A DNA stretch of 61,163 nt, the filler included. It is 8 parts of 8 records of this genome, joined end to end, with 100 filler letters (N's around TTAATTAATTAA, not from the genome) between each part and the next. Parts side by side here need not be neighbours in the genome. Positions count along the whole stretch, not along the records: positions 25,631 to 34,038 come from SRR31147125_8865; 7 more parts are not named here. One strand, 5' to 3'. This document shows, one piece after another, positions 5,137 through 51,376 of the stretch. The first letter of the stretch is position 1. Every line of letters begins with the position of its first letter. The position numbers and the translations under genes were made by a program. Below the pieces are notes generated by a model. It was not told the DNA's origin. It ran no database searches and worked only from the letters and a program-made list of their open reading frames with translations.

Positions 5137-5236
5137 NNNNNNNNNNNNNNNNNNNNNNNNNNNNNNNNNNNNNNNNNNNNTTAATTAATTAANNNNNNNN
5201 NNNNNNNNNNNNNNNNNNNNNNNNNNNNNNNNNNNN
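5137..5236. other. Artificial contig spacer
   Basis: 44 N + TTAATTAATTAA (stops in all frames) + 44 N. Confidence 0.99.
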
Positions 5237-10773: not shown

Positions 10774-10873
10774 NNNNNNNNNNNNNNNNNNNNNNNNNNN
10801 NNNNNNNNNNNNNNNNNTTAATTAATTAANNNNNNNNNNNNNNNNNNNNNNNNNNNNNNNNNNNNNNNNNNNN
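10774..10873. other. Artificial contig spacer
   Basis: N44-TTAATTAATTAA-N44. Confidence 0.99.
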
Positions 10874-10957: not shown

Positions 10958-12115
10958 TCATGCTCCCAATTTTTGATGCACATTTTTCATTTCATAACTG
11001 ATCTCTATTTGCTGGGGACACATTTCTTCGCATTCCCTACATTCATTACAATTCGCGGCTTTTTGTTGCGGATAAAGAAAATGATTATAATGCATATAAC
11101 TCAAATCTTCATCTTTGAACATAAAAGTATCATTATAAATAGAAAAATTAAAAGGAATATCAACACCCTGGGGACAGGGCATACAATAAGCACATGACGT
11201 ACAATCCACTTTGAGCATGTGTCGGTATTTTTCGGTTACCTTTTTGATGAGATTAAGTTCATTAGGTGCAAGAGATAATGCTTTGGCATCATCCACAATT
11301 CTGAGATTATCTATCAGCTGATCCATTGAACTCATTCCACCTAATGCCATTGAAACCTCCGGATGATTCCAGACCCAGCGCAAAGCCCATTCTGCAGGCG
11401 TTCTTTTTACAGGTGCTGTGTTCCATAGTTTATCAACTTCAGCCGGGATTTTTTCCGTTAATTTGCCTCCGCGTAACGGTTCCATTACCACAACCCCAAT
11501 CCCTTTGTTGCTGGCATATTCCAGGCCCTCTTTTCCCGCCTGATTGTTTTCATCAAAATAGTTATACTGGATCTGACACATATCCCAATCATAACTGTCA
11601 ATGATTTCCTTAAATAATTTTATATTATCATGAAAAGAAAACCCTACATATCTCACCCGACCATCTGACACGATTTTCTCTAAAAAAGAAAAGACATCTG
11701 ATTCCTGCATCTTTTTCCATAACGGTGCATTCAATAAATGTAAAAGGTAAAAGTCAACATAATCTGTCTGTAATTTTAACAGTTGTTCATTAATAAATTT
11801 TTCAAAATCATTGATGCTTTGAACCAAATAAGTAGGCAGTTTTGTTGCTATCATGACTTTATCACGGTCAGATTTTAAATATTTTCCTACAAGTGCTTCA
11901 CCCTTTCCGCCATGATAGGCATATGCTGTGTCAAAATAGTTGATGCCATGGTCAATCCCGTAACGGATCATTCTCTCTGTTTGTTTTTCATCCACAGGTT
12001 TTTCCGGATCAAAAATATCGACTTCACTCGTTTTATTAATCAAAGGAAATCGCATACATCCGAAACCAAGGACAGATACATCACAACCTGTTTTACCTAA
12101 TTTTCTGTAAAGCAT
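10958..12115 (-). CDS. Aldo/keto reductase with C-terminal 4Fe-4S dicluster
   Basis: MLYRKLGKTG..SVLGFGCMRFP, GINYFDTAYAY, ATKLP; CTSCAYCMPCP and CNECRECEEMCP; GGAGG RBS. Confidence 0.9.
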   Translation of the reverse strand: MLYRKLGKTGCDVSVLGFGCMRFPLINKTSEVDIFDPEKPVDEKQTERMIRYGIDHGINYFDTAYAYHGGKGEALVGKYLKSDRDKVMIATKLPTYLVQSINDFEKFINEQLLKLQTDYVDFYLLHLLNAPLWKKMQESDVFSFLEKIVSDGRVRYVGFSFHDNIKLFKEIIDSYDWDMCQIQYNYFDENNQAGKEGLEYASNKGIGVVVMEPLRGGKLTEKIPAEVDKLWNTAPVKRTPAEWALRWVWNHPEVSMALGGMSSMDQLIDNLRIVDDAKALSLAPNELNLIKKVTEKYRHMLKVDCTSCAYCMPCPQGVDIPFNFSIYNDTFMFKDEDLSYMHYNHFLYPQQKAANCNECRECEEMCPQQIEISYEMKNVHQKLGA

Positions 12116-13057
12116 AAGCGCCTCCTCTTGTTTTTTCAAATGACTGCAAATCAACTACTGATTAGATTTTTAATATAGCATTGAGCATCATTGGGTGGGA
12201 AAACAAAAGACAAAACAAAAGCTGCATACTGTGGACCATGACAAACGCTTAAAAAAAACAACGTTTGCAGGCCGGTGCCTGATTTTGTTATACTTTTTGT
12301 CAGTTAATTGAATTTATCCATTCGGCAATGTTAAAACGTGACATGCAACATGCCTAAAAGTACATCTCATTTATTAGATAATTGCTATACCACGAATTAG
12401 ATCAACAACAATCACTATCACGTTCTAAATACAATATACACATCACATTGTAAAAACAGTTAAAATCATCTCGTTAGTAAAACCACATTTATTCCACAAG
12501 ATCCTGAGTACGGACATTTTTGATTAAGCGTTACTTGATTTGAAAGCTGTACCAAAACTTGATCTTGACTTAAACCATAATTTTCAACTACCTTTTAGAA
12601 TACTGTAATATAGGGCGAGGAGAACAAGATGTGTAATGCAAGTGGGGAAGAATATGATTAGCAAAAAATCGAAACCCGCCATCGTCATCAATCGATTATT
12701 TTGTGTTGTTCGCTTTTTAGGAGAAATTTGGAATTTTTATATTTATACATTACAAAACACATGAGGATCAGCAAAGATTCTATTTATATTATCTTTTTTG
12801 CCCTTTATAATTTCCAGATATTTCATTTTTACGATCCACTGAATCTCAACAGTTAAAAATAAAAGAATGGAATGAAATACAATTCGGATAAAGGTAACAC
12901 CCGAATCATGTCTGGGACATCAGGATAGTCCACACACCTCATTGTAAAAGTTTGATACAGAGAACCTGATTTTTTTATCTTTCACTTTATTTTTTCTATC
13001 TTGATACCTTTGTGGCATAATTGTTTCTTTTGTAAGAACTTTTATCAAATACTTTCA

Positions 13058-14068
13058 TTAATACCCGATTCCCTTTGCACTCACCTTAACTCGACACAAA
13101 TACATATCGGCCGTAATATAAAGTTCATCTCCATTGTTACCACCAAAACAGCAATTGGATACTCTGGTTCCAGTATCAATACTACCGAGAAAATTGCCAT
13201 CCGGAGTAAAAACCATCACACCACCCGGTCCGGATGCCCAAATATGTCCGGTCGCATCTACAGCCAAGCCGTCACAAGCTCCACCTGTACCGTATTTATC
13301 AAAATCTGTGGCATCGTGAAAGAGTCGGCCGTTGCGGGTTGATCCATCTGCTGCCACATCAAAGACCATCCATATTTTCTTTTTTCCGGAATTGGCTATA
13401 TATAGTCTCTTTTCATCAGGTGACAAGCCAATGCCGTTCGGCCTTTTCAACTCTCTGGTTACCAGCTCGATCGTGCCAACAGGACTTACATGATACACCC
13501 CGCAAAAATCCAGTTCTTTACCCGGATAGTCCGGCCCGGTCAGACCATATGGAGGATCTGTGAAATAAAGGTGTCCCCTTGAACTGATCACAACATCATT
13601 GGGACTATTGAGTTTTTTCCCATTAAACTGGTCCATAAGAATGGATTTCGTCCAGTTTTTCTGATTTAACATGGCGATACATCGATTGCCATGATCACAC
13701 ATCACAAGCTGATTGTTCACAGGATTGACAAACAGGCCATTACAACCAAGTTCTTTTCCAGGTGGATTATCACCCAAAGCATAACCTGCCGGCCGCAGAT
13801 ATACAGTCAATCCCTCCTTTTCGTTCCATTTATAAGTTGTATTTTGCGGGATATCATTGAACAACAGATATCCACCGTCCTTAATCCACACTGGTCCTTC
13901 GCACCAGTCAAATCCTTCTGCCAGGACTTCAATAATCGAGCCCTCCGGAATGAGCTTGTTGATATCAGGATTATCCCGATGGATTTTACCAATAGTTTTG
14001 TAGGCCATATCCGATGGGTAACAAAGACCGAAAAGTAACAAACATATCAGGAAAGATTTCATTTTCAT
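13058..14068 (-). CDS. SMP-30/gluconolactonase/LRE family protein, secreted
   Basis: GFDWCEGPVW, LNSPNDV, FTDPPYG, PNGIGLSPD and DGLAVDATG motifs; signal peptide MKMKSFLICLLL. Confidence 0.9.
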   Translation of the reverse strand: MKMKSFLICLLLFGLCYPSDMAYKTIGKIHRDNPDINKLIPEGSIIEVLAEGFDWCEGPVWIKDGGYLLFNDIPQNTTYKWNEKEGLTVYLRPAGYALGDNPPGKELGCNGLFVNPVNNQLVMCDHGNRCIAMLNQKNWTKSILMDQFNGKKLNSPNDVVISSRGHLYFTDPPYGLTGPDYPGKELDFCGVYHVSPVGTIELVTRELKRPNGIGLSPDEKRLYIANSGKKKIWMVFDVAADGSTRNGRLFHDATDFDKYGTGGACDGLAVDATGHIWASGPGGVMVFTPDGNFLGSIDTGTRVSNCCFGGNNGDELYITADMYLCRVKVSAKGIGY

Positions 14069-16818: not shown

Positions 16819-16918
16819 NNNNNNNNNNNNNNNNNNNNNNNNNNNNNNNNNNNNNNNNNNNNTTAATTAATTAANNNNNNNNNNNNNNNNNNNNNNNNNN
16901 NNNNNNNNNNNNNNNNNN
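16819..16918. other. Artificial contig spacer
   Basis: N44-TTAATTAATTAA-N44. Confidence 0.99.
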
Positions 16919-25530: not shown

Positions 25531-25630
25531 NNNNNNNNNNNNNNNNNNNNNNNNNNNNNNNNNNNNNNNNNNNNTTAATTAATTAANNNNNNNNNNNNNN
25601 NNNNNNNNNNNNNNNNNNNNNNNNNNNNNN
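25531..25630. other. Artificial contig spacer
   Basis: N44-TTAATTAATTAA-N44. Confidence 0.99.
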
Positions 25631-25719
25631 TTCTTCACGATGTTGTCTGTTTCCATCTGAAGAATTCGCAGCTTAATGTTTTTTAGCTTATTTTCGTCAA
25701 GCTCTAAATTCGCTTCCAT
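25631..25719 (-). CDS. Small protein overlapping the helicase stop, 3'-truncated (not in the ORF track)
   Basis: GGAGG 9 nt before the ATG at 25719; reads MEANLELDENKLKNIKLRILQMETDNIVK and stays open to the contig end. Confidence 0.65.
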
Positions 25720-27877
25720 CGAAATCGTCCTCCATTTCTTCAGGTTTTATATTGTAAACATCTTGTATCTCGTTGATTAACTCATCGGAATCACGTGAAT
25801 TGAGGGCAATTCGACCGAATTCTTCAATACGGTTAAGTTCGCGCTTAGCCAATGCTCGACCGCAACTGTAGTCACTGGCGTAGGTATCTACTTCGTCCAA
25901 TGGCTTAATCAGGGTTACAAAGTCATAAATCACGGCGTATGGCTTATTGGCTGCCAGACGCAACACACGACCACGCCGTTGAATGTATTCCTTAGGATTG
26001 GTAGTGCTTGCCAGAATAAATGCTGTTCTGATACTGGGAATATTAACACCTTCATCTAAACATTTTATTGCAACGATGACTTGATACGGGTCTGCCTCGG
26101 CAAAGTGTTGCTTTATGATTTCACGTTCGGCGGCAGACTCATTGGATGTGAAGTGCGTTATTATCATGCCGAGATCATTGCCCAACAGTTTTGATACAGC
26201 AACAATTTGTCTTTCGCCGTAGTCGTCTGACGCAGTGCTGTCAGAATCGTAATCAAAGATACGGGTGGCGCCACAATAGACTAAAATATGAGTATCATCT
26301 TTATAAGGCTCAATCTGCTCTCGCAAGGCGGTTAACTTTTGCTTGGCTCCGGCAACGATGCGGGACCGTGCAAGTAAAAGAGTTTTACCACGTTCAGTGA
26401 TTTTTAACTCGCCGTGTTTGTTGAAATGACATTCACGAGAGATTTTGTATGAAAGATCTTTATAATTCTCAATCTCGTCTTCATCGAGATAAACTAAGAC
26501 AGGATGGTAGTAATATGGTGTAAGTTTGTTTTCGCGGATAGCGCGCTCCAGACTATACTCAATACACTTCTTACCAAAATATGATTTGAGGATTAGACTG
26601 CCCTGTGGATCGTTGTGTCGTTCAAGTGTTGCTGATAGCGCCAGACGATACTCAAACTTAGGGTTAAGGCTGAGACTCAAATGCTCAGAACCAAAGTTAT
26701 GGGCTTCGTCAACCATGACCAGAGTGCCGTCACCTAACTTATTTAACAACTGCTGCACATAAATGGAGGAAAAAGTAGCATTTGTAGTGACAAAACAGAG
26801 AGAGTCAATGACGCCAAGTTGAAAATCCAGCACATCATTTTCTAAACGCTTCTTCCAGTTCTTTTGAGGTGATGAGGAATACCCGATGGTGGGGCGCATA
26901 TTGAATTTGACTATATCCTCAACCCATTGATCCACCAAGTGCTGGAATGGGGCGACAATGATAATGGCTACCCGTTTCTTTATTTCAAACAGTTTGGCTG
27001 CTGCGCCAAGGCCAGTATACGTCTTGCCGGTGCCGGTAGCCATATCAAAAATGCCGCGGAAGTTATTATTCACCCAAGCATCTATGGCATCTTCTTGGTA
27101 TTCGTGGAGCTTAACGCTCCTGGGCACGAGTGGAACACCCGCAATCACAGGTGATAACTCGTATAGGTCTTCTTGCTCGAATTGGTCGATATCTAGCTGC
27201 TTGGCGGCCTCTTCAAACGGTACAAGTTTATCTCGAACTACGTTGGGAAAGTCCAACACAATGATGTTTTTCTCGCGGCATGCCCAGAGAGAGTCGAAGT
27301 CATCCTCTAAATCCTGGACACGCTGGGCATCTTCTACAACGAGTGAGTTGAAAACGACAATGGATTCGTAGTTGTTGTGAAAGGCGTTAATTGTTTCATT
27401 CATGGAGCCCGTAAACGCTAAGCGGTTTCCGTTCTCGTCATAGATGACCCCAATTTTTTCGTGATACATTCCTGTCGTCTTCTGAGGCGGAGTGAAAGCC
27501 ACTTTGATTTCAAGAATACCATTAGAAATCAGTTGAGAGAGCCAGCCAAGACGCTCTTTATCTGAATTGTTTTTGGGCTCACGCAACTCTCTGGCCAAAG
27601 AATTAGCGATAATTTTGCGTTCGTCATACCCCTGCTGAATTGCTTCTATATCTTCGGTTGAAAGAAGTGGAGAAACGATAAATCGAATCTTGCCACCATT
27701 TTTCACCAAACCAGCAATGCCTTTGGAAAGCTCAATCAATGCGGTGGATGAAAAAAAGCCTACGGCGCGTTTATAAAGCACCGATCTTTTCAAAACGGGC
27801 AGATAAAATTCTTTGACGATGTCGTTTTTATTAGTTTTGTAACTTCGGAGTAAGTCAAGCTCATCATATCCCATCAT
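25697..27877 (-). CDS. PLD-nuclease / SF2 (DEAH) helicase fusion; phosphorothioation-system restriction enzyme-like
   Basis: YHEKIG..FTGSMNET (PLD HxK-type), MATGTGKT (Walker A), VDEAH, LSAT, CLDEGVNIP and QRRGRVLR. Confidence 0.85.
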   Translation of the reverse strand: MMGYDELDLLRSYKTNKNDIVKEFYLPVLKRSVLYKRAVGFFSSTALIELSKGIAGLVKNGGKIRFIVSPLLSTEDIEAIQQGYDERKIIANSLARELREPKNNSDKERLGWLSQLISNGILEIKVAFTPPQKTTGMYHEKIGVIYDENGNRLAFTGSMNETINAFHNNYESIVVFNSLVVEDAQRVQDLEDDFDSLWACREKNIIVLDFPNVVRDKLVPFEEAAKQLDIDQFEQEDLYELSPVIAGVPLVPRSVKLHEYQEDAIDAWVNNNFRGIFDMATGTGKTYTGLGAAAKLFEIKKRVAIIIVAPFQHLVDQWVEDIVKFNMRPTIGYSSSPQKNWKKRLENDVLDFQLGVIDSLCFVTTNATFSSIYVQQLLNKLGDGTLVMVDEAHNFGSEHLSLSLNPKFEYRLALSATLERHNDPQGSLILKSYFGKKCIEYSLERAIRENKLTPYYYHPVLVYLDEDEIENYKDLSYKISRECHFNKHGELKITERGKTLLLARSRIVAGAKQKLTALREQIEPYKDDTHILVYCGATRIFDYDSDSTASDDYGERQIVAVSKLLGNDLGMIITHFTSNESAAEREIIKQHFAEADPYQVIVAIKCLDEGVNIPSIRTAFILASTTNPKEYIQRRGRVLRLAANKPYAVIYDFVTLIKPLDEVDTYASDYSCGRALAKRELNRIEEFGRIALNSRDSDELINEIQDVYNIKPEEMEDDFDGSEFRA

Positions 27878-27889
27878 GTATCACCTCAC

Positions 27890-28087
27890 TTACAGGACTT
27901 TTTGGTATTCCAATTGTTGCAAATATTCAACAGCAAGCTTCAGATCAAGTTCTGCAATTTTAATACAGACTCCACAGTACGCCTTGTCCTGCACGGGCGT
28001 AGGAACAATTTCTGTGACGATGTCATGGCTTTGTAGAATCTCCTCTGCTTCAAAGACAGCGCTGGTCTGATAAAACACAAAATGCAT
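27890..28087 (-). CDS. DUF3343-family putative Se/S carrier protein
   Basis: 65 aa with F..T..VFEAEEIL..IVPTP....CGVC, the DUF3343 signature. Its start directly abuts the desulfurase stop. Confidence 0.75.
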   Translation of the reverse strand: MHFVFYQTSAVFEAEEILQSHDIVTEIVPTPVQDKAYCGVCIKIAELDLKLAVEYLQQLEYQKVL

Positions 28088-29215
28088 TTATCTCAATCCT
28101 CTCAGTATTTCCAACAAAGCATCGATCTCGGCTTCGGTGTTCATAAAATTTAAGCTGATACGCACTGAGCCTGTTTCTACAGTTCCAAGCGTTTCATGCG
28201 CTAAAATCGCACAGTGAATTCCTCCACGAATACAAACGCCATTTTTGTCCAAGGTTGCTACCACATCACTGGAGGGTATACCCTTAACATTAAAGCAGAT
28301 GGTGGAGACTCTTTTTCGATCATGGTTATAAACGATCACATTATCTAAGCCAAGTAAACCTTTCACCAGACGCTCTATTAATTGCGTTTCCCGCTCATTT
28401 ATCTCGGCTAATCTTGGCTTGATATAGTCAATTGCTGTTTTCAGCGACCAAATGGCAGGCATGTTCAAGGTGCCGGATTCGTAGGCTTCGGGGAAAATAT
28501 CTGGGTTCACATAGCTTTCACCATGAATGCCGGTGCCGCCTTGCACAAGCGGTTGAATCGTTAAGGGTTCGCAGGAACATAGACCACCGACACCGGGCAA
28601 CGCCAATAAATCCTTGTGTCCGGTGAAAGCCAAGTAGTCGATATGGTCTCGCTCCATGTTGACCAGGCCTTTACCACCGCCCTGGGAAGCATCGACGAAT
28701 ACGATGATGGAGTGTTCATTGCAGATCTTGCTAAAGCGAGAATTAAAAACCAGTTGTCCGGTCAGGTTGCTTGCTAGGGTTACAGTTGCCAGCTTTGTAT
28801 TTGGCCTGATGTAGGTAACAAGTTCAGTTTCTGGATTGTCGAAAACACTTTCTGGCAATATGGTATAGTCGATAACGCCTTTTTGCTTCAACGTATGGAG
28901 CGGGCGCAATACTGCATTGTGTTCGTAGGAGCTAATTAGCACATGGTCGCCTGTGTGTAAGAACCCATCCAAAAACAAATTAATCGCTTCAGTTGAGTTT
29001 TTTGTGAATATGGCGTTAGTTTTTCCAGGAGCACCGAAAAAGTCAGTTACTGTTTTGCGGCTTTGATAAAGCATCCGAGAAGCCTGGATACCCAAAGAAT
29101 AGCTTCCGCGGCCAGGACTGGTACCAACCTCGCGTACATAGTATGTAAAGGCATCATAGACTTCTTCAGGTTTTATTCGAGATGTGGCAGCATTATCGAA
29201 GTAAATCATCGTCAT
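28088..29215 (-). CDS. PLP-dependent cysteine desulfurase (class V aminotransferase, group II SufS/CsdA-like); SspA/DndA role
   Basis: IYFDNAAT, EHNAV, VDASQ, FTGHK (PLP lysine), ESGTLN and RGGIHCA (catalytic Cys). Confidence 0.9.
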   Translation of the reverse strand: MTMIYFDNAATSRIKPEEVYDAFTYYVREVGTSPGRGSYSLGIQASRMLYQSRKTVTDFFGAPGKTNAIFTKNSTEAINLFLDGFLHTGDHVLISSYEHNAVLRPLHTLKQKGVIDYTILPESVFDNPETELVTYIRPNTKLATVTLASNLTGQLVFNSRFSKICNEHSIIVFVDASQGGGKGLVNMERDHIDYLAFTGHKDLLALPGVGGLCSCEPLTIQPLVQGGTGIHGESYVNPDIFPEAYESGTLNMPAIWSLKTAIDYIKPRLAEINERETQLIERLVKGLLGLDNVIVYNHDRKRVSTICFNVKGIPSSDVVATLDKNGVCIRGGIHCAILAHETLGTVETGSVRISLNFMNTEAEIDALLEILRGLR

Positions 29216-30889
29216 ACACCTCAAGAATCAATATTATCCGTGACGGCATTTTTTTGCCCGCCAATACCTGGCAAGTGATACAGCCGTTATAGAATTTTGC
29301 AACACATTTTGAGCACTCTGAAAGGTTTTGTTTACAACGAGTTTCATCAACAACATATCGTCCATCGCCCATGGTGTTGATTGCACCATAAGGGCAAACA
29401 GAATCGCAAGCGGAGCATCTGATGCAGTATTGATATTTCCTCAATTGGCATTTTAGGCGGTTGACCAACAGCAAGATGTCGGTGCCTTTAGTTGGTAATA
29501 CTTTAAGAACTGGGGTTCCCCAAGTGACTACAAGATCACAGAGCTTATGTTTGGGTGAAATCAAATCGCCACTATCATTTCTGATTTCTGCTTCAGTAAC
29601 TGTTATATAAGTTACATCTTCCTTATCAAAGATATCCAACTGGCCAAATGGCTTGAAGAATTCTAATACATCACGATTGATCTTTTTCTTAATGATAATA
29701 TTCCTAGCCCGATCTGACAGGTTGCATGCTGTATCGGTAATTGAAACATTGCGAATTTGAAGTCCACTGGCACCACGTCTGGTTTTCCACCGCCCATTTT
29801 CAATATAATCGTTGATATCTTCTTTTTCGGTCTTCTTGGCAAAGCAAATCAGTGCGTCCCTCCACTTTGCAGCAAGCTCTGGGAAATAAATATCTGTCAG
29901 CATAGAAGACCATTCTGAGTTGTTTGGGCAACACCAACAGCCGACCCGTTTATATCCCCAACGATATGCGTGATTGAATGCAGTTCCTTTATAGAGGATG
30001 TAAAGCCAGACGTCACAATCCGACCACTCAATGATCGGCATGGCATTGATTTGCGCTCCAATTTTTGAATGGCTTTGAGTGCGCTCATAGTTTTGACGTT
30101 CTCTAGATTCGCTACGACGAATTCCTAGGAAGGTCAAGCTATTACCGTTTAAGTTTTGATACTCAGTATTCAAGTTGCTAGTCTTAAAAATGGTACAGCA
30201 CCAGCGTTCAAATTTGCTGGGCGGTCCAAATATATCGCAAAGTTTAAAAAAATCATTATCGGTCTCACTAAGGATCATCGGTGTGAAAGGATTCTCGACC
30301 CGGAAATCCTGCTCAACATAGGTATGGGTACAAGGGAACTCCAAAGTGGTATCACCAAAATAGTGAATGACCGATTCGCTTTGCAAAGCATCACGCACTA
30401 CTCTACTTACAACGGTAGAGTCTTTCCCCCGGAAAAAGAAATAGTTGGCATATAACTCTGTTTGGAGTCTAATTTCAATTCTTCAATCAAAGATGAAGCA
30501 TATCCCTCAGCTTCATAAATAAGCTCTTTGATATATTGCTCATTGGCAGCAACAAACATATCGGCATGTGGAATGAGATCATCATTGTCAATGTTATTCC
30601 GCAAGTATTCGGCAATAACCAGATGCCTTTTGTTTTTATAAAAATCAATATAAGGCAGACGTATGCGTTTGCCGTCAATAAGATAATAACTGCTGCCAAG
30701 GTACCATACTTCGGAATTAGTTATATCCTGACCAAGAATATGCGAAAGTAATTTGCGCTCTTGCTTAAATACTGGATTGCAAACACCAGAATTTGATAAC
30801 GGTTCACAATCCGCACCGCACAACTTACATATATTATATTTTACAACTGGGATCTTGCAATGCGGACACCAATAAACCGTATTGGGCAT
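29193..30889 (-). CDS. PAPS-reductase-family PP-loop protein (SspD/DndC-like) with N-terminal Zn ribbon and C-terminal 4Fe-4S domain; split by a -1 frameshift at ~30425
   Basis: CPHC..CKLC at the N-terminus. SFSGGK|DSTVVS is restored by a one-base shift. Also DTTLEFP, RWCC, GIRRSES, RVGCWCCP and CIRCSACDSVC. Confidence 0.85.
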
Positions 30890-30890
30890 A

Positions 30891-33800
30891 TTATTTCCCT
30901 TCCATTATGTCATTCAATAACGACAGTAAAATCTGTACTTTATCATCATAAGAAACTGATAAACCGAAGTTGCCAAAAGTAGAAATTATTTTATTTTTGA
31001 CAGTTACACTTATATCAGAGAGACCAGTGTTATCAAAAACAACAGTCTTTTCTTCACCAGTGGCGGTGGAAAGCGTCATTTTAGTTTCACTGTCTTGCAG
31101 TTTAGCACTCATGACATAATTGTTGAGTTTGGTTATGACTTCTTCCAAGCGAGGTTTGAATTCTGCAATATATTTGTCACTCCAGTAAGTCAATTCGATG
31201 CCAGTAAGTAGTTTGGCTAGCTTGGAAATGATATCTTGGTCTGAGTTTTCTAACGCCATGTTGGCGACATAGTCCAGAAATGCGTTGGTATAGTAGTCAA
31301 AAGATTTTTGCCGCTTATCTGCCCAACTATTGAGGTATTCATGATGAAGCGTTTCTGCTAAGCTCACATTAGTATCGGCAGACAAAATATCGCACAAGTG
31401 ATATTTCAAATCTCTACACAGTTTATTTACAGCATCTCCCAACTCTTCTTTGATGCTGCTAATAGCATCAACGCTGGCAAGATAGCTGCCGGTTAATACT
31501 TTGACTTTTCCGAAAAAGAATTTGGAATAGCTGGAGTAGCTCTTTTCCATCATAGTACGGTAGGCTTTGGTTTGCTCAGAAACATAGTCCTCGGTAGTGC
31601 GCGCAAATTTCGATACGCTCTTATAATGCGCCATCATCGCATTATAAATAGCTTTTAGCCGGTTTTTAGAAAGGAGAGCCGTATCAATAAAACTACCAAA
31701 CAATTTCTCGAGTTGGTTGATATAAGTTAATTGTTCCTCGTTCCAATCAGCTACCGTGAAATTAAAATCATCAGGGCGCTTAATAATTTCGTCAATCAGC
31801 TCAGCGGTGATTTCCTGCTCGGTGCCATGACTGCTGATAATTAGCGATTTTTTATATGGAGACAAGACAAAAGCCAGAATTAACGATAAGTAACCATCGC
31901 GAAGTCCAAAAGGCGGCTTTTTTAGTATAGAATAGACTGTGCTAAACTCGACTATTCCTTTCTTTGCTTGACCGATTACTTCCTCGAAAAGCTCCTTCAG
32001 GGCTACCTGCGGGTGTTCGCCTGATGACAGGGCATTGACAGCATCACATTCGTCAACTGCAATAAATTCGTTTTTAGCCAAAACCGATCTTACGGCAATA
32101 TAATCTGGGGAAAGGTACTGCAACCCAAAATAAGTATTTGCCGGTTCACTGCTCAAAATTGCACTTATGGCATTTCTTTTTGCGGAAGTAATACTACCTG
32201 AAATAGTATTTTTGTTGATTAACTCGTTGTTGACCAGCAGGGTTCCTGGATAGGTCTCAAACATAACATCGCTAGCTAATTCTGCAACACGGTTCATTGA
32301 TGTAATTCCGCTTTTAACTTCACCGTTACATACGACGAAGATATCCGCAGAATCAATCCGCATCCAATCATCAATAGCAAAATCAATTTCGGCGGCAATT
32401 TCGCGCATGTGATACTGTAGCTCTTTTTCAAAGGCAGGGTCTTTTGCGACATACTTTGCCTTTTGGGTTTCAATGTATTGCGCAGCAATGTATTTTTTGG
32501 CCGATTCAACCAACGCAGAGCAATTGTTATTCACCCAGATTACACTGCGGGAAAGATTCCGAGAGGCTTCTATAACATCGGCAGCGCTCACATCAGTGTT
32601 CCCGAGCAGCATTACCAACACGCCGTCGTAATGGGCACCGAGTCGGGCTGTAAGGGTTTTGCGTGGCAAGTCATCAAGTGAAGCAAAAACCGGAATGAAC
32701 ACGCGAGTGATTTTATAGGCCCGGTTGTAGGCATTTGGATAAAGAACAAACTTAACAAAGTTGTCGTTCAAAACTTTAATAACAGCTTCTCCGCTGATTC
32801 GCACGCTTTCTTCGTCAATCATGGACTCAACATCAAAAATACTAGCATCAAAAAATTCATAACGGTCGTACGTGCCGGAATATTTTATGATTTTTTTATC
32901 GCAGAGCGCATCCAGGGCGTTTCCCAAAACATCTTTGGGGCAGTCAATAGTGCTTAGGATGGTACGCTTGTCAGAGACCAAAGCGCTAGAATCGTTGACG
33001 ATGCCAATCGTGGCAATGACCTTGAGAATTCTCACCTCCGGTGAATCATCAAAAGCATCACAGCGGTTTTTGGCAAATGCAGTTTGCAAATTCTTATACC
33101 ATTGGTAACTGTCATCGCTTTGCACAGCCTTAATGCTAGGTTCAAAATAATCATAAATATCGCTGATGCCGACAAAATGGAACTCACTTAACTCATGTTT
33201 AATTAAAAAACGGTATAAACTATTTTCTTCTTTGCTGGCCAAATATGTAAAAAAAGTCCGATCGTTTTGTGCCACTTTTTTAGATAGACGATCCAACGCA
33301 AACAGCGCGATGGGGTGTAATGGGAAGCCACCCTCAAAAGGATTGTCTTCGTGGGAGACATCGACTAAAAAGCCTTTGAAGTCCATAGCTTCTGCGTACA
33401 TACGATTAAGGCTTTCACGGTACTTGGTTTTGAAAGACTGCCAAACTGGTTCGTTCTTGATCAGAATACTGCGAATTAACGAGAGACACTGGTCTTGCTT
33501 ATTGTTAATAGAATCAGCCTTATAGCGACCCTCAACTTTCTTCCATTCAGCTACAATAGCTTTACCGTAGCGCTGGGTGTACTGACTTATCTCCTTATGA
33601 GAGACCAGAATAATATGGTTGTTACCATCGCTGTGGTCGCAATATTCTGCTAAATCCTGAATAGATTTAACCTTTATGTTCTTGATGTTATCTTCGATAT
33701 AGCGGCCAAATTCGTCGAACACGAATACAATACCGCTGTAGGTGTTAGCAACAGCCGTGGCGGCTTGCTTTAGAGTCTCGGACATGTTAGAAACTTCATA

Positions 33801-34038
33801 GACATACTTCACGCCGAAAGTCATGCCGGCAAATAGCTTGTCAAATGTTTTTTCGGCATGCGGATCAAAGTCTGCTAAGCTTTTTTGCAGCTCTGCTAGA
33901 TCGATATGTTTTTTATTACATACATCATTGAGGCGAGCAGAAGATTCGTTGCTCTCTTGCCACTGAGATAAAAGAGCTTGAGCTTGATCGTAAAAAGTTT
34001 TATAGCTAATCTTATACCCTTGCGCATCCAACTTTTTT
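30891..34038 (-). CDS. Large P-loop ATPase, SspC/BrxC(PglY)-like, 5'-truncated
   Basis: IVFVFDEFGRYIE (Walker B), EWKKVEGRY, GGFPLHP, AQNDRTFFTYL and KPPFGLRDG; 1 nt from the PAPS reductase start. Confidence 0.75.
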
Positions 34039-34138
34039 NNNNNNNNNNNNNNNNNNNNNNNNNNNNNNNNNNNNNNNNNNNNTTAATTAATTAANNNNNN
34101 NNNNNNNNNNNNNNNNNNNNNNNNNNNNNNNNNNNNNN
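34039..34138. other. Artificial contig spacer
   Basis: N44-TTAATTAATTAA-N44. Confidence 0.99.
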
Positions 34139-34671
34139 TGTGTTTTTGCCTCGCGGTAACGCAAAGTCAAATCAATTTTATAATCGGGAAAAACCTCGGT
34201 AAAATGTTTTCCTTCAGCTAATTCTATTTCTTCCGAGTTAATTAATAAGGCTTTTTCTTTGTTAAAGCCCATTCCCTCGATATACTGTTTCGAAGTAAAA
34301 TTGTATAAACTATTGTGTTGTTCCGGATTAATGGGGAAAAATTCGCCCATCTGTACAAAGGTTAACTCGCTTAAACTTGGTTTTTTTATACCTGCTAATC
34401 CATATTTTCCCAAAATGTTTTTACCCTTCTGGTTATTCCAGTTTTCGAGTAACATTTTGGTGAAATCCATAAAATATTTGGCCGTTTTTCCGGTAGGAAG
34501 GCTAACTACGCCATCAGGATTTTCGCTAACCCACTCTAAAAAACTTAATGCCGATAATAAACCGAGTTTAGGAAAACTCTCGGTTGCGATATAAGGAGTT
34601 TTTGTTGAAATTTTCTGAAGTTGAGTCTCTTTAACAAATTCTTCCTCAACCTTTGTGAAATTGTGTTTCAT
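34139..34671 (-). CDS. Glucosamine-6-phosphate deaminase-like protein, N-terminal part
   Basis: GVVSLPTGKT and LTFVQMGEFFPINPEQHNS NagB-like motifs; downstream of the ROK regulator. Confidence 0.7.
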
Positions 34672-44888: not shown

Positions 44889-44988
44889 NNNNNNNNNNNN
44901 NNNNNNNNNNNNNNNNNNNNNNNNNNNNNNNNTTAATTAATTAANNNNNNNNNNNNNNNNNNNNNNNNNNNNNNNNNNNNNNNNNNNN
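44889..44988. other. Artificial contig spacer
   Basis: N44-TTAATTAATTAA-N44. Confidence 0.99.
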
Positions 44989-51276: not shown

Positions 51277-51376
51277 NNNNNNNNNNNNNNNNNNNNNNNN
51301 NNNNNNNNNNNNNNNNNNNNTTAATTAATTAANNNNNNNNNNNNNNNNNNNNNNNNNNNNNNNNNNNNNNNNNNNN
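51277..51376. other. Artificial contig spacer
   Basis: N44-TTAATTAATTAA-N44. Confidence 0.99.

Follow-up and report, generated by a model that had tools for sequence, protein, structure and literature searches.

A cysteine desulfurase gene abutted by a DUF3343 gene marks a Clostridia-type lineage of DNA phosphorothioation cassettes

The DNA window analysed here (61,163 nucleotides (nt), consisting of eight parts of eight records of one genome joined end to end) carries, in the part that comes from SRR31147125_8865, an Ssp-type cassette for DNA phosphorothioation (PT), where the gene of a group II-type, EF2568-like cysteine desulfurase of 375 amino acids (aa; positions 28088-29215, minus strand; PF00266, E 7e-72) is directly followed by that of a 65-aa DUF3343 protein (27890-28087, minus strand; PF11823, E 7e-11) with the motif VPTPVQDKAYCGVC. 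The fixed pairing of these two genes marks one Clostridia-type lineage of PT defence cassettes, and the pair is most likely the sulfur-mobilising end of the Ssp-type modification module. It is best read, with somewhat better than even confidence, as a persulfide donor and acceptor of the SufS/SufE kind that would feed the PP-loop enzyme SspD, a proposal which gives the uncharacterised DUF3343 family a testable role as the small sulfur acceptor of a desulfurase donor.

In the proposed mechanism, the pyridoxal phosphate (PLP) enzyme would move the sulfur of L-cysteine onto its own Cys335 as a persulfide, Cys38 of the DUF3343 protein would take this sulfur over as a dedicated acceptor, as SufE does for SufS and CsdE for CsdA, and the DUF3343 protein would then pass it to the PP-loop/iron-sulfur (Fe-S) enzyme SspD and so to the DNA backbone. 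Both the transfer and its direction are inferred. A persulfide relay had already been put forward in an earlier note on this DNA, and it is the most economical reading of the pair. In E. coli K-12, sufE lies directly after sufS and csdE directly after csdA, which is the same layout as that of the cassette pair, namely a group II desulfurase gene and then a gene for a small protein with a key cysteine; the cassette departs from these systems in its proposed target, which would be a DNA-modifying enzyme instead of Fe-S assembly.

The junction between the two genes has no spacer, the desulfurase stop codon (TAA, 28090-28088) being followed immediately by the ATG of the DUF3343 gene (28087-28085), and the desulfurase starts at 29215 or 29209. 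Translation, Pfam matches and coordinates thus agree with the earlier description of a 65-aa DUF3343-like gene placed directly after the stop of an RGGIHCA desulfurase. This arrangement recurs in 44/44 related cassettes (41 loci found by motif, the loci L013 and L061, and the window), and for this reason the pairing is far beyond chance. A search with SspD returned 20 loci, four of which (L002, L004, L010 and L012) are cut before the pair can be judged, and in 16/16 of the loci that reach past the desulfurase a DUF3343 gene lies right behind it. A search with an alignment of cassette-type DUF3343 proteins, using the pattern [QT]DKAYCGV, returned the 41 motif-found loci, and in all of them the desulfurase is directly upstream of DUF3343, with SspD upstream in 39 (the other two are cut by contig ends) and PbeA downstream in 38. 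By label, 39/41 of these loci are Bacillota (Lachnospiraceae, Oscillospiraceae, Ruminococcus, Eubacterium and others), the remaining two being metagenome-assembled genomes (MAGs), one labelled Caulobacteraceae and one Paludibacteraceae. The gene order in intact relatives is SspB (PF13182, DUF4007, 1.5e-57), SspC (about 1,190 aa), SspD, desulfurase, DUF3343, PbeA and PbeC (1e-109), with two further small or medium genes behind PbeC. In four loci (L138, L139, L142 and L143) about 2.1 kb separate SspD from the desulfurase, and the pair is still abutted. In L019, which is the same region as L138 and the only locus in which the inserted open reading frames (ORFs) were identified, this gap (11091-13260, plus strand) holds a GHKL ATPase gene (HATPase_c_3, 7.6e-27) together with a weak GIY-YIG-like gene (E 0.005), and these two could represent an additional effector or else a mobile insert. 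The same kind of gap is seen in L018, and its carriers form a sub-group of Lachnospiraceae.

The pair is independent of the restriction genes of the cassette. PbeA is missing from L119, L122 and L127, all of which retain the desulfurase and DUF3343, and in one of them (L122, also found as L020; L020 12449-21008, plus strand) genes resembling DndF (1e-99), DndG (1.5e-61) and DndH (3.9e-239) replace PbeA and PbeC, so that the modification module swaps its restriction partners. Conversely, PbeA is present and DUF3343 absent in five Ssp loci whose genes are ordered differently. As the pair is kept without PbeA and PbeA occurs without DUF3343, DUF3343 goes with the desulfurase and not with PbeA; its place is with the modification genes, among which it is tied to the desulfurase. 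Outside PT cassettes, five of 20 DUF3343 genes are immediate neighbours, in one order or the other, of an EF2568-like desulfurase gene, and for seven a desulfurase gene is found at a distance of no more than 2 kb. This accords with the co-occurrence of the two families that the earlier note had pointed to, which is also in print: in the available text of Lin et al. 2015 (PMC5322559), DUF3343 is linked to genes of the Sec-lyase family and to YedF, and its conserved cysteine is pointed out.

All five genes of the cassette contig are on one strand, and the claim that the pair is embedded in a DNA-modification operon is borne out by its neighbours. The SspC-type ATPase (30891..34038, minus strand; PADLOC SspC, 2.5e-96) is cut at its 5' end by the contig end and has 1,046 aa here, about 143 codons fewer than relatives of about 1,190 aa (range 1,156-1,192 aa), to which its tblastn identity is 37-84%. 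It is followed by an SspD/BrxP-like PP-loop protein (29224..30889, minus strand) of the fold of 3'-phosphoadenosine 5'-phosphosulfate (PAPS) reductases (PF01507), with a C-terminal ferredoxin-type 4Fe-4S part (Fer4), which scores best with the PADLOC model of BrxP (4.7e-60) and less well with those of SspD (1e-5) and DndC (5e-4). Behind the pair, and starting 12 nt past the DUF3343 stop, lies the restriction-side gene PbeA (25697..27877, minus strand; PADLOC PbeA, 9.3e-237; TIGR04095, 1.2e-142), a phospholipase D-type (PLD, HKD) nuclease fused to a superfamily 2 helicase, with the Pfam domains PLDc_2, ResIII and Helicase_C. SspB (DUF4007) falls outside the contig, which ends within sspC, and is found upstream in the nearest relative, L007, and in 38 further loci, in five of which the gene is cut by the start of the locus. 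Within this set of genes the desulfurase probably serves as the functional SspA of the cassette.

A PLP-binding lysine and a catalytic cysteine within a stretch of the R-x-G-x-H-C-A type characterise group II in the classification of cysteine desulfurases into groups I and II. The window desulfurase has kept K201 as its PLP lysine and Cys335, which is part of RGGIHCA, as its catalytic cysteine, and across 35 aligned sequences K201 (in H200-K201), C335, H99, D175, Q178, R330 and G332 are invariant. The enzyme is accordingly assignable to group II, on the side of SufS and CsdA. A tree of 39 rows, from which L004 was left out as it is cut by a contig end, unites the 18 cassette desulfurases in one clade (100/100) and places the 11 enzymes from loci with the other Ssp gene order in a separate clade of sister level (99/88). 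A 100/100 branch has SufS, CsdA and every cassette row on one side and E. coli IscS, accompanied by one IscS-like row, on the other; the phylogeny therefore sets the cassette enzymes away from IscS, in line with the group II type named in the earlier note. The order of clades on the SufS/CsdA side is an open polytomy, which includes the "free" desulfurases that adjoin DUF3343 genes elsewhere. Among NCBIfam models the best is TIGR01977 (EF2568 type), with 351 bits against a cut-off of 377, and cassette relatives score likewise (345.6 bits in L061 and 348.2 in L019); since TIGR01977 is the best-scoring family and yet its cut-off is narrowly missed, the cassette desulfurases are a divergent sister group. 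The DndA model (TIGR03235) gives 117.5 bits, far from its cut-off of 480, and the scores for SufS, NifS, CsdA and IscS are 221, 146, 137 and 97 bits, respectively.

The 65-aa protein encoded by 27890-28087 contains IVPTPVQDKAYCGVC and matches PF11823 (Se_S_carrier/DUF3343) with 41.9 bits against a cut-off of 25, its residues 3-58 aligning with positions 4-59 of the 69 in the profile. The usual 80-100 aa of the family are not reached, as the C-terminal tail is missing and the core domain is present, and this shortness is typical of the lineage (61-71 aa in 41 cassette copies versus 73-103 aa in 20 other members). Cys38 is invariant in all 38 DUF3343 proteins aligned, of which 18 are encoded in cassettes and 20 at other sites of these genomes, and P29, P31 and G39 reach a conservation of 90% or more. 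It could be argued that such a small protein carries nothing and acts as an allosteric activator of the desulfurase, or as an adaptor which tethers it to the SspBCD complex, and its strict co-occurrence with the desulfurase as well as its reduced length would suit such a function; however, a cysteine retained in cassette and non-cassette members alike would not be easily understood in a pure adaptor, and we give this explanation only a slim chance. A prediction of the complex of desulfurase and DUF3343 protein, made without the use of alignments, had a median score of 0.32 against a mark of 0.34, with controls at 0.00, and speaks neither for nor against binding.

In the cassette proteins the invariant cysteine is part of the motif VPTPV(Q/T)DKAYCGVC, and CGVC is present in 42/44 copies. 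This raises the alternative that DUF3343 is a small CxxC dithiol reductant, in the way that thioredoxin serves PAPS reductases: an intermediate of SspD or of the desulfurase, be it a persulfide, a disulfide or thiosulfonate-like, would be reduced and the enzyme thereby released or regenerated. The PAPS-reductase fold of SspD fits such a role, as does the occurrence of a CGxC variant in 4/20 DUF3343 genes outside cassettes. On the other hand, L013 and L061 have serine in place of the second cysteine (Cys41), which the other 16/20 non-cassette proteins also lack, and in all of these Cys38 persists, and the DUF3343 fold is not thioredoxin-like; a reductant is therefore judged unlikely.

The AlphaFold2 model (predicted local distance difference test, pLDDT, 88.7) has a beta-alpha-beta-beta-alpha-beta fold, in which Cys38 closes the least confident loop, at the entry to strand 3. 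Foldseek found no match to this model in the PDB at E <= 0.001, sequence searches of the PDB with the protein and with the profile returned nothing meaningful, and a VIA wide fold search gave a best Z of 7.5 (C-domain of UreE), which is in the noise range and indicates a generic ferredoxin-like fold, with no SufE, TusA or SufU among its rows. The presence of small metallochaperone domains among the nearest folds (UreE, and GolB with a Z of 5.8) brings up a further explanation, in which DUF3343 would be an Fe-S or metal chaperone that builds or repairs the 4Fe-4S clusters of SspD with sulfur derived from the desulfurase, and would not be the source of the sulfur in DNA. The Fer4 part of SspD would offer it a client, and DndA has been reported to assemble the cluster of DndC, as cited in the available text of PMC7188994 and PMC7464106. 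DUF3343 is, in addition, fused to the N-terminus of the radical-SAM (S-adenosylmethionine) maturase HydE in 2/30 sampled genomes (TIGR03956, 322 and 312 bits against a cut-off of 254.6), a second and independent link of this domain to sulfur and Fe-S chemistry. Nevertheless, the fold scores are no higher than chance arrangements give, a 65-aa monomer with its one or two cysteines is insufficient on its own to hold a cluster, and in loci that have no DUF3343 the SspD of the other Ssp lineage aligns by tblastn, in which the ferredoxin part was not separately tested, over nearly the full length of the window SspD. A chaperone function is, in our estimate, rather improbable.

The two HydE fusions are located at 1527-2900 of L144 and 1614-3002 of L145, both on the minus strand, and that of L144 adjoins HydG (595 bits). 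PF11823 is found in 19/30 sampled Bacillota genomes, with up to five matches per genome. A DUF3343-like N-terminal part also occurs in L146 (2477-3496, plus strand), fused to about 250 residues without an NCBIfam match, just after a ClpC-like ATPase gene, named by eye from its translation.

Beyond the cassette lineage, DUF3343 is rare among Ssp and BREX (bacteriophage exclusion) type 4 loci. The BrxP model was searched against 401 sampled Bacillota genomes and the 30 best loci were taken, of which 15 are SspD-like (about 550 aa) and 15 are of the BrxP type over most of the model (mostly about 780 aa). PF11823 adjoins the SspD/BrxP gene in a single one of them, L061 (genome G280), which has the gene order of the window. 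A desulfurase is adjacent in 12/15 SspD-type loci, and 11 of those 12 have the order SspD-SspB-SspC-desulfurase(-PbeA) without DUF3343. Since one of the 30 loci has DUF3343 and 11 have the same desulfurase family alone, DUF3343 is a lineage-specific accessory that has become fixed in one sub-lineage and is no general part of Ssp chemistry. Absence of DUF3343 from most homologous operons had been named in the earlier note as evidence that would speak against a dedicated relay, and this is the case at the level of the family (1/30) and not within the sub-lineage, in which the gene is invariant (44/44). The contrast drawn there, of characterised PT systems with group I desulfurases and no small carrier, stands in so far as none is described for the SspA of Vibrio; it fails for the Ssp systems of Bacillota, because the desulfurases of the 11 DUF3343-less loci also belong to the SufS/CsdA side. 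The idea that DUF3343 tracks the desulfurase family was ruled out, as each of the five desulfurases tested from Ssp loci without DUF3343 passes TIGR01977 (381-423 bits) and so shares the NCBIfam family of the cassette enzymes, the order of the clades being open. In genome G048, a contig with an Ssp locus of the other order also has a PF11823 match (G048:C21:23534-23731), roughly 15 kb downstream of that locus.

Several of these results weigh against a donor and acceptor pair. In the 11 loci without DUF3343 the desulfurase is followed, where this was checked, by 40-70 nt before the next gene, which leaves no room for a small gene behind it, and a linked desulfurase is present in 0/15 sampled BREX-4-type (BrxP) loci. 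In the available text of PMC7188994, SspA of Vibrio binds SspD directly and no carrier is described. From the DUF3343-less loci, the desulfurase-free BREX-4 loci and this direct binding it follows that a carrier is not needed in principle for Ssp chemistry. Moreover, the DUF3343 protein has no detectable relation, in sequence or fold, to SufE or CsdE, nor any detectable relation to SufU or TusA, its near-invariant second cysteine suits a redox or metal role equally well, the polytomy of the tree is compatible with an origin of the cassette desulfurase inside or outside a DUF3343-linked clade, and a full-text literature search retrieved no biochemical function for any DUF3343 protein. The persulfide donor and acceptor nonetheless represent the reading that we favour, and a broader version of it, in which DUF3343 would be a new class of dedicated persulfide acceptor with a ferredoxin-like fold, unrelated to SufE, CsdE, SufU or TusA and obligatory for a divergent clade of group II desulfurases, is a serious possibility held with somewhat less than even confidence.

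EF2568 and SclA are linked to selD loci, and the earlier note had gone on to speculate that selenium might be incorporated into the DNA backbone. In such a scenario the pair would mobilise selenium from selenocysteine and the cassette would write phosphoroselenoate into DNA. The membership of the desulfurase in the wider EF2568/SclA-like group, with 270 bits for the model of the selenocysteine lyase SclA (NF040779), could be cited in its favour, as could the enrichment of DUF3343 near selenium genes that is described in the available text of Lin et al. 2015 (PMC5322559). However, the SclA score is far under the cut-off of 525, and when selD was searched in the cassette-bearing genomes of five relatives, it passed the cut-off in only two (G001 and G004) and remained below it in Senimuribacter sp. 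DSM 106208 (G002), Lachnospiraceae bacterium A4 (G003) and a MAG (G005); in the first two of these three its absence is not explained by the incompleteness of a MAG because both are isolates. Furthermore, according to the same part of Lin et al. 2015 there is no selenium-specific branch of DUF3343 and the family also occurs in organisms that lack SelD, and Ssp and BREX-4 systems are shown, in the available texts of PMC12914056 and PMC7188994, to write sulfur. The expected co-occurrence with selD was thus not borne out, and incorporation of selenium is regarded as extremely improbable.

Compared with known systems, the cassette shares with SspABCD of the Vibrio cyclitrophicus type the SspC ATPase, the SspD PP-loop enzyme and a linked desulfurase, and in relatives also SspB. 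It differs in its gene order (B-C-D-desulfurase), in an SspD that is closer to BrxP and has about 150 extra N-terminal aa and a C-terminal ferredoxin part, in its EF2568-like desulfurase (351 bits for TIGR01977 versus 154 for the PADLOC SspA/DndA models), in the added DUF3343 gene, and in a restriction partner of the PbeA/PbeC type or, in some relatives, of the DndFGH type, instead of SspE. To BREX type 4 (BrxP-BrxC-BrxZ-BrxL) it is related through its PAPS-reductase enzyme, which is most like BrxP, and through SspC, which is like BrxC; BrxP is, however, a fusion of SspD and SspB of about 780 aa, and the sampled BREX-4 loci have neither a linked desulfurase nor an adjoining DUF3343 (0/15). BREX-4 has been shown to write PT in gut Bacteroides, where it draws on the housekeeping SufS (PMC12914056, in the available text). 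The same two families as in the cassette are adjacent in the pairs of DUF3343 and Sec-lyase-family genes (Lin et al. 2015; EF2568/SclA of Enterococcus faecalis), although the cassette desulfurase is only 33-41% identical to DUF3343-adjacent desulfurases outside PT loci (35-41% for the four aligned and 33% for that of L086), and the cassette DUF3343 is shorter (61-71 aa versus 73-103 aa), with its own VPTPV(Q/T)DKAYCGVC motif and no link to selD.

In full-text searches no paper was found that joins DUF3343 or PF11823 to phosphorothioation, or that describes a sulfur carrier with sspD in a PT context. The main text of the 2024 reappraisal of PT in Nucleic Acids Research (PMC10853773) contains none of the terms carrier, TusA and persulfide, and the 2026 BREX-4 paper (PMC12914056) lacks the word carrier, the supplementary neighbourhood tables of both being places where the gene could be listed. 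PT systems have been described with a desulfurase that delivers directly to DndC or SspD, and a lineage with a constant third component would extend this scheme by one step. DUF3343 is widespread in anaerobes and has had no assigned function since it was flagged in 2015. In this regard, the cassette is compact and portable and has an unambiguous chemical output, which makes it a practical test bed; if DUF3343 is indeed a persulfide acceptor, the PT cassette would be the first setting for a genetic readout of its function, as PT present or absent, and a new acceptor class could also explain the links of DUF3343 to desulfurases of the Sec-lyase type and to HydE. Cultured carriers of the cassette that are not pathogens include Pseudoflavonifractor intestinihominis, Senimuribacter sp. 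DSM 106208, Anaerobium acetethylicum, [Clostridium] fimetarium, Ruminiclostridium sufflavum and Acetatifactor aquisgranensis.

The cassette occupies one contig of 8,408 bp (25631-34038) by itself, with no other genes on it, between the artificial linkers at 25531-25630 and 34039-34138. The remaining joints in the window, as identified from runs of N, are at 5137-5236, 10774-10873, 16819-16918, 44889-44988 and 51277-51376, and each of the seven, as read from the sequence, consists of N44, a 12-base linker with stops in all frames and another N44. Gene neighbourhoods across the joints are artificial, therefore neighbouring genes in the window give the cassette no context, and some ORFs, such as 34087-34671, cross the Ns of a joint. 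Homology to the nearest relative, L007, spans exactly 34037..25631 (82.8% nt identity), the relatives of the contig are Clostridia, and its GC content is 0.42-0.45 versus about 0.35 for most other parts of the window. The other contigs carry Bacteroidota-type genes (a sorting tail of the type IX secretion system (T9SS), OmpH, a LolA-like protein and sulfatases) and also rhamnosidases, all of which, being on separate contigs, are uninformative on the cassette operon. An interpretation of the window cassette as the eroded remnant of a horizontal acquisition by a Bacteroidota genome, which had rested on the SspC that is short by about 143 codons, the lack of sspB and pbeC and the adjoining sulfatase and T9SS genes, was dropped, since SspC is short and sspB and pbeC are absent because the contig ends there. 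The cassette contigs in the MAGs labelled Caulobacteraceae and Paludibacteraceae are L110 (the same as L009) and L137, the remaining carriers being Clostridia; together with this window, these settings outside Clostridia could be due to mis-binning or to cross-phylum transfer.

In the window the sspD gene is broken in two places, the 556-aa SspD of L007 mapping to it in three frames (30889-30422, 30437-29250 and 29265-29224), and in relatives SspD is a single ORF of 531-559 aa. The first break falls within the SGGKDS PP-loop motif, and both (at about 30422-30426 and about 29248) are single-base homopolymer differences. Logan contigs of the sequencing runs X1, X2 and X3 carry one extra base at each of the two breaks, which restores one frame, and for this reason the breaks most probably reflect mistakes in a record of low depth (about 6) and not a dead gene. 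The contigs of X1 are at least 99% alike to the window and X1 is the probable source sample (depth about 6), so that they provide an independent assembly and not an independent sample. Those of X2 and X3 are relatives of 90-95% identity that cover the cassette, and the runs X2, X3 and X6 share just 5-7% of the sampled words. The X1 contigs match the desulfurase and the DUF3343 gene (to 28065 of 28087) without any difference.

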